Source: Candidatus Thalassarchaeum sp.
GTDB lineage: Archaea > Thermoplasmatota > Poseidoniia > Poseidoniales > Thalassarchaeaceae
Direction: 5' to 3'
Length of the DNA stretch: 64,000 nt
Assembly (NCBI GenBank): GCA_022451235.1
Contig: JAKUOA010000001.1
Coordinates: 40,401 to 104,400 of the forward strand
This document shows, piece by piece, positions 32,398-40,110 of this stretch (positions are counted from its first letter, which is position 1; each line of letters starts with the position of its first letter). The translations under genes were made by a program, and so were the position numbers. The notes below the pieces were generated by a model. The model did no database searches and was not told the origin of the DNA. It saw nothing but the letters and a program-made list of their open reading frames with translations.

Positions 32398-33285
32398 TCA
32401 ATTTCGAGTCCAAGATGGAATGAATACATCTCTCCAATTCGGAGTTGCAAGATATTCTTCCTCGGTAAAGAATGACCTTGCATAAATCGAAATAAAGTCG
32501 ATAATTAGAACAACAATGTAGATAATAATCAGGTATGCAAATACCTTGTCATATTGTAAAAATCTAAGATACAGATCGATGTAATATCCAATTCCTCCTG
32601 CACCGACAATGCCGATTACAGTACCAGAACGGAAATTATATTCAAACATGAATATCGAGTGAGAAATTAGATCATTTGCGGCTTCAGGAATAACTACGTT
32701 AACTGCTACTTCCCAACGACTCAAGCCTATTGCATTCGCCGCATCCAAAGGAGTTTTTGTCAGACCCTCAATTGATTCATACTGTAATTTTCCAAGATAT
32801 CCTACGGTGTAAATTGTCATTGCCAGAACGCCAGCTAATGGACCTAAGCCGACTAGAATAACCAAGAAAATAGCCCAAATCAATGCTGGAAGACTCCTGC
32901 ATGCTGAGATAAGAAAGCGGGTAGGGTAAGATATCCATCGCGGGCTTAAATTTCTTGAAGCCATGATTGACAAAGGTAATGTTACAACCATACCAAATAC
33001 AGTTGCAACAAACGCAATCTTTAGCGTCTCAATAACTCCCTTCCAAGCGGTTGAGCAAGTGAAATCGAAAATTGGTTGGGCAGTACAAACAGGGTATGTT
33101 TGAGGCTCTAGAACGCTCATATCTGGTGGCCAAAGAGACTGAAAGAAGAATCTGACAAGATTATCTGGGCCACCTGCTAATCTACCCCAGTCGCCAACCA
33201 TTCCGTTTAGAATTACAATTGCAAGCAAAAGGAGAATCCATAGCACCAGAGCCATCTTTTCGCCATCTACTGCTATCTTCTTCAT
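32398..33285 (-). CDS. phnE: ABC importer permease, PhnE-like
   Basis: 295 aa with 6 TM helices. The EAA-like loop is DAANAIGLSRWEVAVNVVIPEAANDLISHS. The start overlaps the stop of the upstream ATPase by 4 nt. Confidence 0.8.
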   Translation of the reverse strand: MKKIAVDGEKMALVLWILLLLAIVILNGMVGDWGRLAGGPDNLVRFFFQSLWPPDMSVLEPQTYPVCTAQPIFDFTCSTAWKGVIETLKIAFVATVFGMVVTLPLSIMASRNLSPRWISYPTRFLISACRSLPALIWAIFLVILVGLGPLAGVLAMTIYTVGYLGKLQYESIEGLTKTPLDAANAIGLSRWEVAVNVVIPEAANDLISHSIFMFEYNFRSGTVIGIVGAGGIGYYIDLYLRFLQYDKVFAYLIIIYIVVLIIDFISIYARSFFTEEEYLATPNWRDVFIPSWTRN

Positions 33286-33992
33286 GAATTCAACACCACA
33301 GCTTTTGGTTTGGTAATGAATGGATTCACTCTTCCATCATCAATAACTAGGAGGCGATTTGCCATTGACTTGGCTCTAGAAATATCATGCTCGACAACGA
33401 TTAATGCTGAATTATTATCTCTCACGTAGCTTGTCACGCTTTCCAAAACCATAGCCAATGTTTCTTCGTCTAATTCACTCAAAAATTCATCTGCTAGAAT
33501 TAATCTTGGTCGCTGAGCCAATGTTCTGGCCGTTGCGACTCTTCTCTGTTGGCCACCGGACAATCTCCTAATTGGTTCTCTTGACTTTTCCTTAAGCCCC
33601 ATTTGTTGAATTGCATTGGTAACTCGTTCCTTTCTTTCCTTCCTATCATTAGTTCCAGCTCGAGCACCCAACATTACATTGTGCCTAACACTTGCATGAC
33701 GAACTAAACCCAATTTTTGTGGAATATACCCTAGTGCGCCACGGAGAGGTTTCGAGGGAATTTCTGCACCACACACTGTGATCGAACCGGAAATTGGACG
33801 TATTAGTCCCGCAATTGTACCAAGTAAAGTGGACTTCCCGATACCAGAAGGGCCCGCTATGGCCACTATTTCACCAGGGAATATTTCGAGATTGGGAATA
33901 CTGACTAAGGGTGATTCAGTTTCATATCCGATTACTACATCTTCGAGGGAGACAATCGGATTTTCTGAACCCATACCCTCGGACAACTCCAA
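33282..33992 (-). CDS. phnC: ABC importer ATP-binding protein, PhnC-like
   Basis: Walker A GPSGIGKSTLL, Q-loop YIPQKLGL, signature LSGGQQRRVATART, Walker B LILADEFLSELD and H-loop VEHD. The ORF opens at TTG 33992. ATG 33974 (MGSENPIV) is a likely alternative start. Confidence 0.85.
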   Translation of the reverse strand: MELSEGMGSENPIVSLEDVVIGYETESPLVSIPNLEIFPGEIVAIAGPSGIGKSTLLGTIAGLIRPISGSITVCGAEIPSKPLRGALGYIPQKLGLVRHASVRHNVMLGARAGTNDRKERKERVTNAIQQMGLKEKSREPIRRLSGGQQRRVATARTLAQRPRLILADEFLSELDEETLAMVLESVTSYVRDNNSALIVVEHDISRAKSMANRLLVIDDGRVNPFITKPKAVVLNS

Positions 33993-34005
33993 AGCCCCCT
34001 TGTAA

Positions 34006-34021
34006 TTTAGGCGGCCCTAAA
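34006..34021. promoter_or_regulatory. Palindromic box A, TTTAGGCGGCCCTAAA (TTTAGG-N4-CCTAAA), upstream of phnC
   Basis: Perfect 6-bp inverted arms. Lies 14-30 nt upstream of the phnC ORF start, next to an AT-rich TATA-like ATATAT (34024-34030). One of four copies in 5 kb. Confidence 0.6.
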
Positions 34022-34078
34022 CCAATATATGGTATTGATGGGTTTAGTGATAACAAAATATCTTACGAATCAGATAAC

Positions 34079-38532: not shown

Positions 38533-38967
38533 ATGTTGAAGAAAATGGTCAATACTGATGAGTTAATTGTGGCGCTAAATAATGCTCTCGCTTGGGAATT
38601 GAGGGCTATTGCAATGTATGCTCACTATTCCGCATACGTTTCAGGGATTCATAGATTACAACTTTCGGTATTCTTCAATAATGAAGTAACAGAATCAATT
38701 GCGCATGCTTCAACCGTAAGATCCGCTATAGTGAAATTACACGGTAAGGCCACTACGGAGAGGGCAGAAGAGCCTATTTTACACTCAATGGACTTCCGAG
38801 ATATGTTGGAAGAGGCACACAAAACTGAGTTGAAAGCTAGCGAGACATATGGAGACATTTTACCAATGGTTGAGCAAATTGGGGATAGCGAACTTTTTGA
38901 TGCCCTGGAAGTTATTTACTTTGATGAACTGAGATCTGTAGAAGAATTGAGAATGATGCTTGGTTGA
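38533..38967 (+). CDS. Ferritin-like / bacterioferritin-Dps-like four-helix-bundle protein
   Basis: LIVALNNALAWELRAIAMYAHYSAY parallels bacterioferritin helix A (LN..L..EL.AI.QY). Later Glu/His-containing helices are NNEVTESIAHAS, LEEAHKTELKASETY and FDALEVIYFDELRSVEEL. The spacing of one E/H pair deviates from canonical ExxH. Confidence 0.55.
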   Translation: MLKKMVNTDELIVALNNALAWELRAIAMYAHYSAYVSGIHRLQLSVFFNNEVTESIAHASTVRSAIVKLHGKATTERAEEPILHSMDFRDMLEEAHKTELKASETYGDILPMVEQIGDSELFDALEVIYFDELRSVEELRMMLG

Positions 38968-38993
38968 GATTTAAACATACTATTTATCGTTAG

Positions 38994-39009
38994 TTTAGGG
39001 TGCCCTAAA
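38994..39009. promoter_or_regulatory. Palindromic box D, TTTAGGGTGCCCTAAA, upstream of the monolobal transferrin-like gene
   Basis: TTTAGG-N4-CCTAAA. Begins 5 nt downstream of the TATA-like TATTTAT (38982-38988) and ends 31 nt upstream of ATG 39040. Confidence 0.6.
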
Positions 39010-39039
39010 CATTATCAAACAAACCGATTTCGGAGATGT

Positions 39040-40110
39040 ATGGAAAAAACTAGTTGGGCTGGTTGGGCCAAAGCTAACAAAGCACTTTTGCTCGCTGGAT
39101 TAGTGCTATCTGCGACCGTATTGTATCTCATTTTCGACATTAATTACGAACAATGTGATGATCAAGATAACTGTATTACAATCGCTTTTGAGGTACAAGA
39201 TGACTATTTGTATTTTGGAAAAGAGAACCCTCAGCACTTGGCAGACAAAATGAGTGCTCTGACTGGTATGGATGTTGAAATAATGCCTGTATCGAATTCC
39301 GGCGCGATAATCGAGGCTATCAATAATGGCAATGCGGATATTGGATTTGTAGATGGAGCGGCCGCTTGGCTTGCATGGGAAGTTTACGATTTGGACGTGC
39401 TAGCGGCTGAGTGGAAATTTGATCAAAGGACGTACTATAATGCGGCAGCCTGGGTGAAAAAGGACTCTGAAATTGCAGACGCATACCTAGATGATGATCC
39501 AGATACAGACCCATTTGCTTTGATGAATGGAAAAACGTCTTGCCACACAGGATGGCTGAAAAGTGCTGGGATGTTGATTCCAATGGGATACTTGATTGGA
39601 AATGGGTATGCTGAGGTACGTGGAGATCCTGAAGAAATTACTTCACTACGAGATACAGTGACGCATTTCTTCAACGAAGATTCAAGCATACCAGACGGAG
39701 GCACTCAATATTCTGGATACAAGGGTGCAATGAAGTGTATGATGACTGATCGCGGAGACGTTGCTTTAGTCAAGGATACAGCATATATGCTCTACTGTGA
39801 CGAAAATGAGGACGGAATTGCAGATGGTCCTGATTGGTGTTTAGATAGAGATGAGCTCGTTATGCTCGAGCCATTTGGTCAAGCACCGAGTCACCCCGCT
39901 TTGTATAATCCCTCGACTATGAATGACGAAATGGTCGAACTAATTCAAAATGCATTGGTGGATATGAATAATGATGAAGAAGGTACGAAGATACTCTCCG
40001 ATGTCTTAAACACTGAAGGGATGGTTGCTACGAATGCTACTGCTCACCTAGGCACATATGGTGCGGCTGTAGAGAACGTTCCTGGAATACAAGCATTTTT
40101 CGAGGATTGA
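39040..40110 (+). CDS. Monolobal transferrin-family protein with an N-terminal membrane anchor and all four canonical Fe ligands conserved
   Basis: Blocks GFVDGAAAW (Asp), [14 protein letters not shown] (Tyr), [22 protein letters not shown] (anion-site Thr, with Arg replaced by Lys), [24 protein letters not shown] (Tyr) and [11 protein letters not shown] (His). N-terminal TM [19 protein letters not shown]. Confidence 0.8.
   Translation: [356 protein letters not shown]

Follow-up and report, generated by a model that had tools for sequence, protein, structure and literature searches.

Which substrate does a marine archaeon import through a PhnC-PhnE-type ATP-binding cassette (ABC) transporter whose binding proteins look like transferrins? 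The question is raised by a locus in a 64-kb stretch of DNA (the whole of which is called the window; G+C around 0.39-0.47), assigned from its sequence to a Marine Group IIb archaeon (Marine Group II, MGII) resembling Candidatus Thalassarchaeum, of the lineage Thermoplasmatota; Poseidoniia; Poseidoniales; Thalassarchaeaceae. An initial annotation had read the locus as a candidate Fe(III) uptake system, and the open reading frames (ORFs) that it named were all present: on the minus strand a PhnE-type permease (32398-33285), a PhnC-like ATP-binding subunit (33282-33992) and a bilobal transferrin-like lipoprotein (34079-36175), and on the plus strand a monolobal transferrin-like substrate-binding protein (SBP; 39040-40110). 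We consider the locus likely to be a metal-repressed Fe(III) ABC import regulon of this archaeon.

Transferrin homology, metal site and relatives

The monolobal protein (356 aa) has an N-terminal transmembrane helix, found at residues 14-32 in an AlphaFold2 model built on 35 homologs (pLDDT 87.5, pTM 0.79), and is 97-99% identical to proteins from Poseidoniales metagenome-assembled and single-cell genomes, e.g. UBA126 and AG-404-A19. It scored 64.7 bits with PF00405 (Transferrin, cut-off 20.3) and 83.5 bits with PF12974 (Phosphonate-bd, cut-off 27); the bilobal protein (698 aa) scored 77.0 and 85.8 bits, respectively. With the NCBIfam PhnD model TIGR03431 (cut-off 261.1) and the phosphate/phosphite/phosphonate subfamily model TIGR01098 (cut-off 112), the monolobal protein reached 29.9 and 47 bits and the bilobal protein 40.9 and 67.7 bits. 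The comparison of Pfam profiles suggested in the initial annotation placed both proteins above the cut-offs of the two families. Both are far below those of the two NCBIfam models, and no FbpA/FutA-type family was present among the Pfam or NCBIfam matches of the proteins. The best 60 phmmer matches of the monolobal protein in the PDB were all transferrins, lactoferrins, ovotransferrins or melanotransferrins (E 5e-19), and the best 60 of the bilobal protein were all transferrin-type (E 3e-22), a result well outside what chance would give. The PDB alignments paired GFVDG of the monolobal protein with SLDGG and another of its blocks with YSGYSGAFHC. When the model was searched against the PDB with Foldseek, the top 26 matches were transferrins or lactoferrins (E 4e-15, TM-score 0.52-0.60).

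The metal site was compared with that of the N-lobe of human transferrin (hTf), in a sequence that reproduces the canonical D63/Y95/T120/R124/Y188/H249 numbering. The corresponding residues of the monolobal protein are D105/Y133/T170/K174/Y227/H285, which bears out the earlier assignment of the Asp, Tyr, Tyr and His ligands, of a kept Thr and of an Arg replaced by Lys; the five sequence blocks singled out at that time lie at residues 102-110, 130-143, 164-183, 223-246 and 281-289. In the 35-sequence family alignment D105, T170, K174, Y227 and H285 are invariant and Y133 nearly so. All four positions that bind Fe in transferrins are kept, and from the identity of their residues they are predicted to act as ligands. 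The Lys at the Arg124 position is no oddity, since the combination D-Y-T-K-Y-H is also common in eukaryotic lobes, namely in those of Ichthyosporea and in many metazoan (melanotransferrin-type) ones. As aligned in a PDB search, PtxB, a canonical PF12974 member, has Gly where the Asp would be and Tyr in place of the His, and the second Tyr is absent; with three of the four ligands missing there, the tetrad is not a general feature of the PhnD family. Among the lobes sampled, both columns of the hTf C118-C194 pair are Cys in all transferrin-like ones of prokaryotes and in almost all eukaryotic ones, and are without Cys in a Cys-free PF12974 group. The predicted C118-C194 disulfide is kept in the monolobal protein.

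Scored against 1.84 billion protein representatives at 50% identity, a profile of the archaeal family retrieved only 634 at E<=1e-3, a set far too small to contain the PhnD family, which is a very large one. The nearest relatives outside the archaea were eukaryotic transferrins, with the five-lobe protein of Chromosphaera perkinsii (E 7e-185) at their head and others from Corallochytrium, Creolimax, Amoebidium, Ichthyophonus, Sphaeroforma, Abeoforma and the green alga Bryopsis; metazoan relatives include a crinoid melanotransferrin-like protein and a scorpion transferrin. In pairwise comparison, the identity of the monolobal protein is 28-32% with the Chromosphaera lobes (E 1e-35) and 29% with a Cys-free protein of the PF12974 type (E 5e-30). 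The Cys-free group scored strongly with PF12974 and marginally or not at all with PF00405, carries D-Y-T-G-Y-H, and gave as PDB matches, in this order, PtxB, melanotransferrin, and ArrX and PhnD. Four of its members (P0232, P0233, P0246 and P0258) had been intended as a true PhnD outgroup and proved, by the D-Y-T-G-Y-H set and by melanotransferrin in second place, not to be canonical PhnD; as the group turned out to be of the metal type, the root of the tree is only approximate. One Cys-free SBP adjoins CbtA/CbtB cobalt-transporter genes on an archaeal contig (L033, 4113-8706). The group may represent a deeper, metal-binding branch of the 'phosphonate' family. Sequence space is continuous from PhnD/PtxB over the Cys-free SBPs with the tetrad and the disulfide-bearing prokaryotic transferrin-like SBPs to the eukaryotic transferrins.

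A neighbour-joining (NJ) tree of 69 lobes was computed with Kimura distances from 304 columns, with 100 bootstraps and the Cys-free group as root. It showed the eukaryotic lobes to be monophyletic (93%) and the metazoan-type lobes likewise (100%), beside several ABC-linked prokaryotic lineages whose branching order is weakly supported (16-45%). A phylogeny had been called for in the initial annotation. No prokaryotic sequence lies inside the eukaryotic clade of the 69-lobe tree, which within the limits of NJ speaks against a recent transfer from eukaryotes to archaea. An origin of the archaeal genes from a eukaryotic transferrin, acquired horizontally (e.g. from marine protists) and later recruited by an ABC system, would make these genes neither an ancestral form nor an intermediate. 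It would suit the fact that Poseidoniales live among protists, the presence of other eukaryote-type domains in the window (LDL-receptor class A, EF-hand and RanBP2 zinc fingers) and the weak prokaryotic backbone. Yet distinct prokaryotic lineages, high-GC Thermoplasmatota included, share the order of SBP, ABC ATPase and permease as well as the type of operator; the prokaryotic proteins are devoid of the extra eukaryotic disulfides and of the insertion carrying C158, C171, C174 and C177; and the Cys-free group, with the same tetrad, lies further out. Together with the exclusively eukaryotic clade, these observations make such a transfer highly improbable. The family is an ABC-coupled prokaryotic form of the transferrin fold, and of the prokaryotic proteins recovered none stands closer to eukaryotic transferrins.

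Giant multi-lobe transferrins were also seen among the eukaryotic relatives (P0124 of Chromosphaera, P0133 of Corallochytrium, P0137 of Bryopsis, P0148 and P0163). The Chromosphaera protein has five complete lobes, the 2619-aa Bryopsis protein has 14 matched stretches, and D-Y-T-K-Y-H is intact in most ichthyosporean lobes tabulated, including all five of Chromosphaera.

The initial annotation had ascribed a transferrin signature to both ORFs; the family match was found for both, and the ligand set for the monolobal protein and not for the bilobal one. At the six hTf positions, the N-lobe of the bilobal protein has D99/Y127/T164/H168/F221/D277 and its C-lobe P419/R447/T484/S488/E538/E593, and its orthologs vary freely at the ligand positions. 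By its residues, it is a transferrin homolog with a partial ligand set in the N-lobe and a degenerate one in the C-lobe. In the NJ tree both lobes of the Poseidoniales bilobal proteins fall inside the archaeal family (67%), the C-lobes together (100%). A different bilobal protein, P0121, has two intact sites and its own lobes pair with each other, so the bilobal architecture arose at least twice in archaea, and the tree places it as independent of the lobe duplication of eukaryotes.

Importer, operator and substrate

The bilobal gene occupies, as first noticed from the letters, the phnD slot directly 5' of phnC and phnE on the same strand. The PhnC-like ATPase (236 aa, 33282-33992, minus strand) scored 110 bits with PF00005 and 132 bits with TIGR02315, below the cut-off of 266. 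Its gene overlaps by 4 nt that of the permease (295 aa, 32398-33285, minus strand), which scored 233.7 bits with TIGR01097, the PhnE model (cut-off 216.7). The minus strand reads FEA1-related lipoprotein, bilobal protein, operator box, phnC and phnE, and the plus strand GDPD-like gene, ferritin-like gene, operator box, monolobal protein, glucose/sorbosone dehydrogenase (GSDH)-like lipoprotein and 704-aa surface protein. An ABC ATPase and a PhnE-type permease lie beside the transferrin-like protein in every prokaryotic context examined. Poseidoniales loci at 66-68% identity (L020-L026) have no bilobal gene: phnC and phnE run in one direction and the monolobal gene in the other from a box between them, with FEA1 next door. 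On an MGII metagenome contig (L149) box, SBP, phnC and phnE follow in a single direction, and in other prokaryotes (L027-L031, L155 and L156) the transferrin-like SBP is always followed by ABC ATPase and permease.

The shared palindromic operator mentioned in the initial annotation proved real: TTTAGG-N4-CCTAAA occurs in four exact copies in the 64 kb (at 34006, 37712, 37756 and 38994), all inside the locus, where 0.06 would be expected. Box 1 (TTTAGGCGGCCCTAAA, 34006-34021) lies between the bilobal gene and phnC, directly 3' of a conserved TATA-like element CCATATATTGG, and by this position marks a predicted internal promoter for phnC and phnE. Box 2 (TTTAGGTCTCCCTAAA, 37712-37727) is 2 nt 5' of the FEA1 start codon; box 3 (TTTAGGGCGCCCTAAA, 37756-37771), in the divergent region between FEA1 and the GDPD-like gene, adjoins the TATA-like TTTCATATAC; and box 4 (TTTAGGGTGCCCTAAA, 38994-39009), which directly adjoins a TATA-like element, precedes the ATG of the monolobal gene by 30 nt. 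The box-TATA junctions read CCTAAA-TTTTATC at the monolobal and FEA1 genes and CCATATATTGG-TTTAGG at phnC. Of 26 related loci, 24 have the palindrome at the same promoters, that of the monolobal gene among them, and this extends to loci with 66% protein identity. Boxes lie 14-45 nt from the start codons. FEA1 in the lineage of the window is the exception, with one box flanking the TATA element and a proximal one 2 nt before the ATG. Such a promoter position is where archaeal repressors block TBP/TFB or RNA polymerase. A metagenome scan with GTTTAGG-N4-CCTAAAC gave 119 matches, most of them chance ones in unrelated GC contexts; seven MGII-type contigs among them match proteins of the window (L044, L062, L073, L100, L101, L125 and L149), with informative box-gene contexts in six.

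In other lineages, a gene for a DtxR/MntR-family repressor (Fe_dep_repress and Fe_dep_repr_C) stands directly 5' of the SBP gene on five contigs (L027, L028, L029, L155 and L156), which represent four distinct sequences; four of the five are archaeal (two near ribosomal protein S6e, two labelled Thermoplasmatota). High-GC Thermoplasmatota loci carry a palindrome of identical geometry, TTT[C/A]G-N6-C[G/T]AAA, in one to four copies each against about 0.01 expected, 5' of the DtxR-family gene in L153 and L155 and 5' of the transferrin-like SBP gene in L029, L030, L155 and L156. One of the L029 sites is a hybrid, TTTCGA...CCTAAA. The Poseidoniales box would then be an AT-rich version of the same DtxR-family operator. 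L155 (7940-7955) and L156 (7212-7227) have a fourth operator-like palindrome, TTTCGAGGCCTCGAAA, before a 164-aa ORF 3' of the permease; this ORF may be a further member of the regulon.

Two of the four boxes stand before the gene of a 411-aa lipoprotein (36474-37709, minus strand; lipobox IAGC, C-terminal Cys module), described at first as an unknown lipoprotein. It scored 358.2 bits with NF038033 (cut-off 250) and 69.7 bits with PF07692 (cut-off 25), and an approximately 100% identical protein is named 'FEA1-related lipoprotein [Candidatus Thalassarchaeum sp.]' by NCBI. These matches make it a member of the FEA1/ISIP2a (phytotransferrin) domain family, and the archaeal protein is very highly conserved (86% column identity). 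The family, to which FEA1 of Chlamydomonas and ISIP2a phytotransferrin of diatoms belong, is described in PMC7676907 as induced at low iron and serving carbonate-dependent Fe(III) uptake in algae. No sequence relatives of the archaeal FEA1 protein were found in the PDB, and a single-sequence structure model was discarded (pLDDT 41.8).

We propose that the membrane-anchored monolobal protein would capture Fe(III) at the cell surface through its Asp-Tyr-Tyr-His and Thr/Lys site, with carbonate probably serving as the synergistic anion, and deliver it to the PhnC/PhnE-type importer. The bilobal paralog, the FEA1-related lipoprotein, the pyrroloquinoline quinone (PQQ)-dehydrogenase-like lipoprotein and the large surface protein would be co-regulated helpers. 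A DtxR/MntR-family regulator encoded elsewhere in the genome most likely binds TTTAGG-N4-CCTAAA beside the TATA element and, under metal sufficiency, would block the initiation of transcription.

Several observations weigh against iron import. Fe(III) as the ligand of the monolobal protein is read from residue identity, the bilobal protein in the phnD slot is without the canonical transferrin ligand set, and no gene for DtxR, Fur or a similar regulator was found in the window. A GDPD-like gene (201 aa, 37864-38469, plus strand; PF03009, 29.3 bits) is a conserved neighbour, such genes being typical of phosphorus scavenging, and a G3P-dehydrogenase gene also adjoins the locus. These two neighbours would suit a PhnCDE-type importer of phosphonate, phosphite or another phosphorus oxyanion, in which diverged PhnD-family SBPs reuse transferrin-like residues for the oxyanion. 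So would the top Pfam match of both binding proteins, PF12974, with a score slightly above that of PF00405, and the permease, which passes the PhnE 'equivalog' model TIGR01097. The latter holds as well for the partner permeases of six of six other loci (L027 and L029-L033, the Cys-free group included; 225-249 bits against 216.7). In the structural comparison, which the initial annotation had asked for and which agreed with it in the 26 transferrin-type matches at the top, the PhnD-family proteins AioX and ArrX followed from rank 27 nearly as well (E 5e-14), so close that the fold alone does not discriminate; by fold the monolobal protein is intermediate between the two families, and it is the sequence evidence that brings it nearer to transferrin. 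In the MGII genomics literature, 'the transport of phosphonates' counts among the core traits (PMC6336850).

An oxyanion substrate fits less well with binding proteins far under the TIGR03431 and TIGR01098 cut-offs, and with a tetrad that is complete and invariant in the family where PtxB is without three of the four residues. Co-regulation with an FEA1-family protein, and the DtxR/MntR-family rather than Pho-type regulators of the other lineages, also speak against it. A Pfam scan of 29 ORFs of the window showed neither C-P lyase nor phosphonatase genes nor Pho-type regulation. We regard phosphonate or phosphite import as very unlikely.

A metal other than iron, either Mn or a hard cation under an MntR-like regulator, has to be weighed in the same way, as transferrins also bind Al, Ga, Ti and V. 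The Thermoplasmatota repressors, which JGI labels 'Mn-dependent', score higher with MntR than with DtxR models, all below curated cut-offs. They combine an MntR-like Glu at DtxR position 10, where DtxR has Met and MntR has Asp, with a DtxR-like Cys102, the residue tied to Fe responsiveness in DtxR/IdeR. With these scores and this mixture of residues, the family of the repressors does not tell Fe from Mn. The related Cys-free D-Y-T-G-Y-H SBP near cobalt-transporter genes adds to the case for another metal. For iron, on the other hand, speak the two tyrosinates, Asp, His and anion site, which make up the classical Fe(III)-carbonate site of transferrins, the phytotransferrin-family protein in the regulon, the ferritin-like gene in close relatives, the Cys102 kept in the repressors, and repressor scores that all stay under the curated cut-offs. 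Import of a metal other than iron appears unlikely.

Fe(III) import is consequently the reading that we retain as likely. The computational checks put forward in the initial annotation all turned out in its favour, and none of its refuting conditions that such checks could address applied. The transferrin homology, the monolobal ligand set, the ABC linkage and the iron-type context of the initial proposal all stood, the last of these being stronger than first supposed, and what fell was the ligand set of the bilobal protein.

Accessory genes and other features of the window

The ferritin-like gene reported in the initial annotation encodes a 144-aa diiron-carboxylate protein (38533-38967, plus strand; PF00210, 57.8 bits), the best PDB match of which is the ferritin-like diiron protein 2qqy (E 5.5e-14). 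It is confined to the closest relatives, being present in L001 and L005 and absent from L002 and the more distant loci. The GSDH-like lipoprotein (400 aa, 40157-41359, plus strand; lipobox FAGC) is a predicted PQQ-type beta-propeller (PF07995, 78.3 bits) that resembles PQQ-dependent soluble aldose dehydrogenases and matched 2g8s in the PDB (E 3.5e-8). Its gene lies directly 3' of the monolobal gene in all loci that reach far enough, and the two are probably co-transcribed. Next on the plus strand comes the 704-aa surface protein (41262-43376, likely true start ATG 41379), with a C-terminal membrane anchor and no Pfam family; in L007, L044 and L101 a box stands directly 5' of the gene of its homolog. 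There is no box before the GDPD-like gene in L007-type loci, and the membership of this gene in the regulon is uncertain. The bilobal, FEA1-related and GSDH-like proteins carry lipoboxes (LSGC, IAGC and FAGC) and the monolobal protein its N-terminal helix, so that all four are predicted to be surface-exposed.

Two tandem long-stem RNA hairpins occupy the 3' region of FEA1 (36272-36444, minus strand). Directly after the stop codon, the motif stands at 36370-36444 and, as a tandem duplicate in the window, at 36272-36340, each with a 12-13-bp stem (GUUGGCAGGGGG/CCCCCUGUCAAC) around a loop of 45-55 nt with conserved sequence. The region has a fold energy of -97.7 kcal/mol (z -5.8), and the motif is unique within the window. 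The hairpin is kept 3' of FEA1 in 12 loci (L001, L002, L005, L007, L011-L014, L017, L018, L022 and L026), with compensatory A-U to G-C changes and with G-U pairs that only the FEA1-sense strand allows. Rfam gave no match for it in the 31-42 kb scanned, where a tRNA was the only hit. The hairpin could be a stabiliser of the 3' untranslated region, a terminator or a regulatory element.

A Cys module of about 60 aa, MYLE[ND]Y...TGCY[ND]..TH...EEC, is common to three surface proteins: the FEA1-related lipoprotein (36645-36818, residues 298-355), the bilobal protein (34214-34315, residues 619-654) and an 815-aa protein (29964-30068, residues ~340-394). In BLASTP comparisons the FEA1 module shares 53% identity with that of the 815-aa protein (E 4e-20) and 34% with the C-lobe insertion of the bilobal protein (E 3e-6). 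The module may be a common docking or disulfide domain. The 815-aa protein itself (28683-31130, minus strand) is a lipoprotein of very acidic composition. It has EF-hand pairs and an LDL-receptor class A domain, both of eukaryotic type in an archaeon, as well as a PGF-CTERM-like tail. Between its gene and the G3P-dehydrogenase gene lies a tRNA gene (31192-31273, minus strand; RF00005, 51.5 bits).

Elsewhere in the window, two RanBP2-type zinc fingers (PF00641, 68.5 bits) occur together with Arg/Gly-rich repeats in a protein encoded at 43333-44130 (plus strand), and the homolog of this protein travels with that of the 704-aa surface protein in L007-type loci. A very long ORF of 2161 aa spans 46552-53037 (minus strand). 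At 5266-11223 (plus strand) we observed a xanthine-dehydrogenase or CO-dehydrogenase-type cluster (XdhC, [2Fe-2S] subunit and large subunits) that adjoins an HTH_10 regulator and a MobA-like gene.

Comparison with known systems

Database labels already combine the two families: NCBI uses 'PhnD/SsuA/transferrin family substrate-binding protein' with both Pfam domains tagged, and occasional JGI names are 'melanoma-associated antigen p97' and 'ABC-type phosphate/phosphonate transport system'. That transferrin and phytotransferrin go back to periplasmic proteins that bind phosphonate is an idea already in print (McQuaid 2018, as summarised in PMC7676907). In the full texts searched, which cover subscription papers only partly and leave a mention in McQuaid 2018 possible, we found neither a prokaryotic ABC-coupled, ligand-complete PF00405 transferrin family or regulon nor an archaeal FEA1. 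Transferrin and SBP-dependent ABC import of Fe(III) are thus known kinds, and the ligand-complete, ABC-coupled prokaryotic form appears new.

We tentatively put forward a wider scenario, somewhat short of an even chance, in which Thermoplasmatota hold the ancestral ABC-coupled transferrin, a surface-anchored monolobal protein that takes up Fe(III) with carbonate in the same manner as animal transferrin and supplies a PhnE-type permease; eukaryotic transferrin descended from it, and the MGII 'phosphonate transporter' is a carbonate-dependent, high-affinity iron uptake system co-regulated with an FEA1 homolog. Entry into eukaryotes would be near the base of Holozoa, because the most similar eukaryotic proteins are found there.

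An iron importer would change the view of nutrient physiology in MGII, among the most abundant groups of ocean archaea, would make the 'PhnD' annotation misleading and would add a separate Fe(III) uptake route to those of FbpABC and siderophore systems. Should capture depend on carbonate, carbonate chemistry would influence how archaea of the surface ocean take up iron, as it does for diatoms. The origin of transferrin from phosphonate-type SBPs becomes directly testable in a living prokaryotic family that has the full metal site, the signature disulfide and the ABC translocator. Transferrin-type and FEA1-type proteins under one prokaryotic operator offer a simple system for studying their cooperation, and the conserved operator gives a starting point from which the metal regulon can be mapped in uncultured archaea.

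The archaeal proteins are homologous to the eukaryotic transferrins of PF00405 (serotransferrin, lactoferrin, ovotransferrin, melanotransferrin and the multi-lobe proteins of Ichthyosporea), with E 1e-19 to 1e-35 per lobe. The monolobal protein has in common with them the type II binding-protein fold, the Asp-Tyr-Tyr-His set, an anion site of Thr and Lys/Arg, and both Cys of the C118-C194 pair, and the Lys at position 124 is common in holozoan and melanotransferrin-type lobes as well. Unlike these, the archaeal protein is monolobal and membrane-anchored, has about 6 Cys and is without the disulfide-rich insertion; its gene is coupled to an ABC ATPase and permease instead of receptor-mediated endocytosis; and the archaeal bilobal form is a separate duplication with degenerate sites.

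With PhnD, PtxB, HtxB and AioX and their PhnC-PhnE partners, the proteins have in common the superfamily and fold, a PF12974 match and PhnC-like and PhnE-type neighbours. They differ in missing the PhnD cut-offs widely, in the transferrin tetrad and Cys pair, both missing in PtxB, and in co-regulation with iron-type genes and the DtxR/MntR-family repressors. In FbpABC, an extracytoplasmic SBP binds Fe(III) through tyrosinates and a synergistic anion and passes it to an ABC importer. The locus resembles FbpA, FutA, HitA and SfuA, the 'bacterial transferrins', in the predicted capture of free Fe(III) by an SBP, hand-over to an ABC importer and metal-dependent repression, but belongs to another sequence family and has a PhnE-type permease in place of an FbpB-type one. 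On sequence similarity, true homology to eukaryotic transferrin lies with the archaeal transferrin-like family and not with FbpA.

The lipoprotein at 36474-37709 falls in the same domain family (NF038033, PF07692) as the phytotransferrins FEA1 and ISIP2a of algae; in contrast to these it is a lipoprotein of an archaeon and carries an additional Cys module, and its gene stands beside a transferrin-type ABC system. The operator, finally, is like those of DtxR, IdeR and MntR in being a palindrome with TTAGG...CCTAA-like half-sites at metal-uptake promoters and, in Thermoplasmatota, in the occurrence of a site of the same geometry 5' of both the repressor gene and the uptake operon. It is a 16-bp site with 6-nt arms and a 4-nt spacer, as opposed to the 19-bp DtxR/IdeR box.

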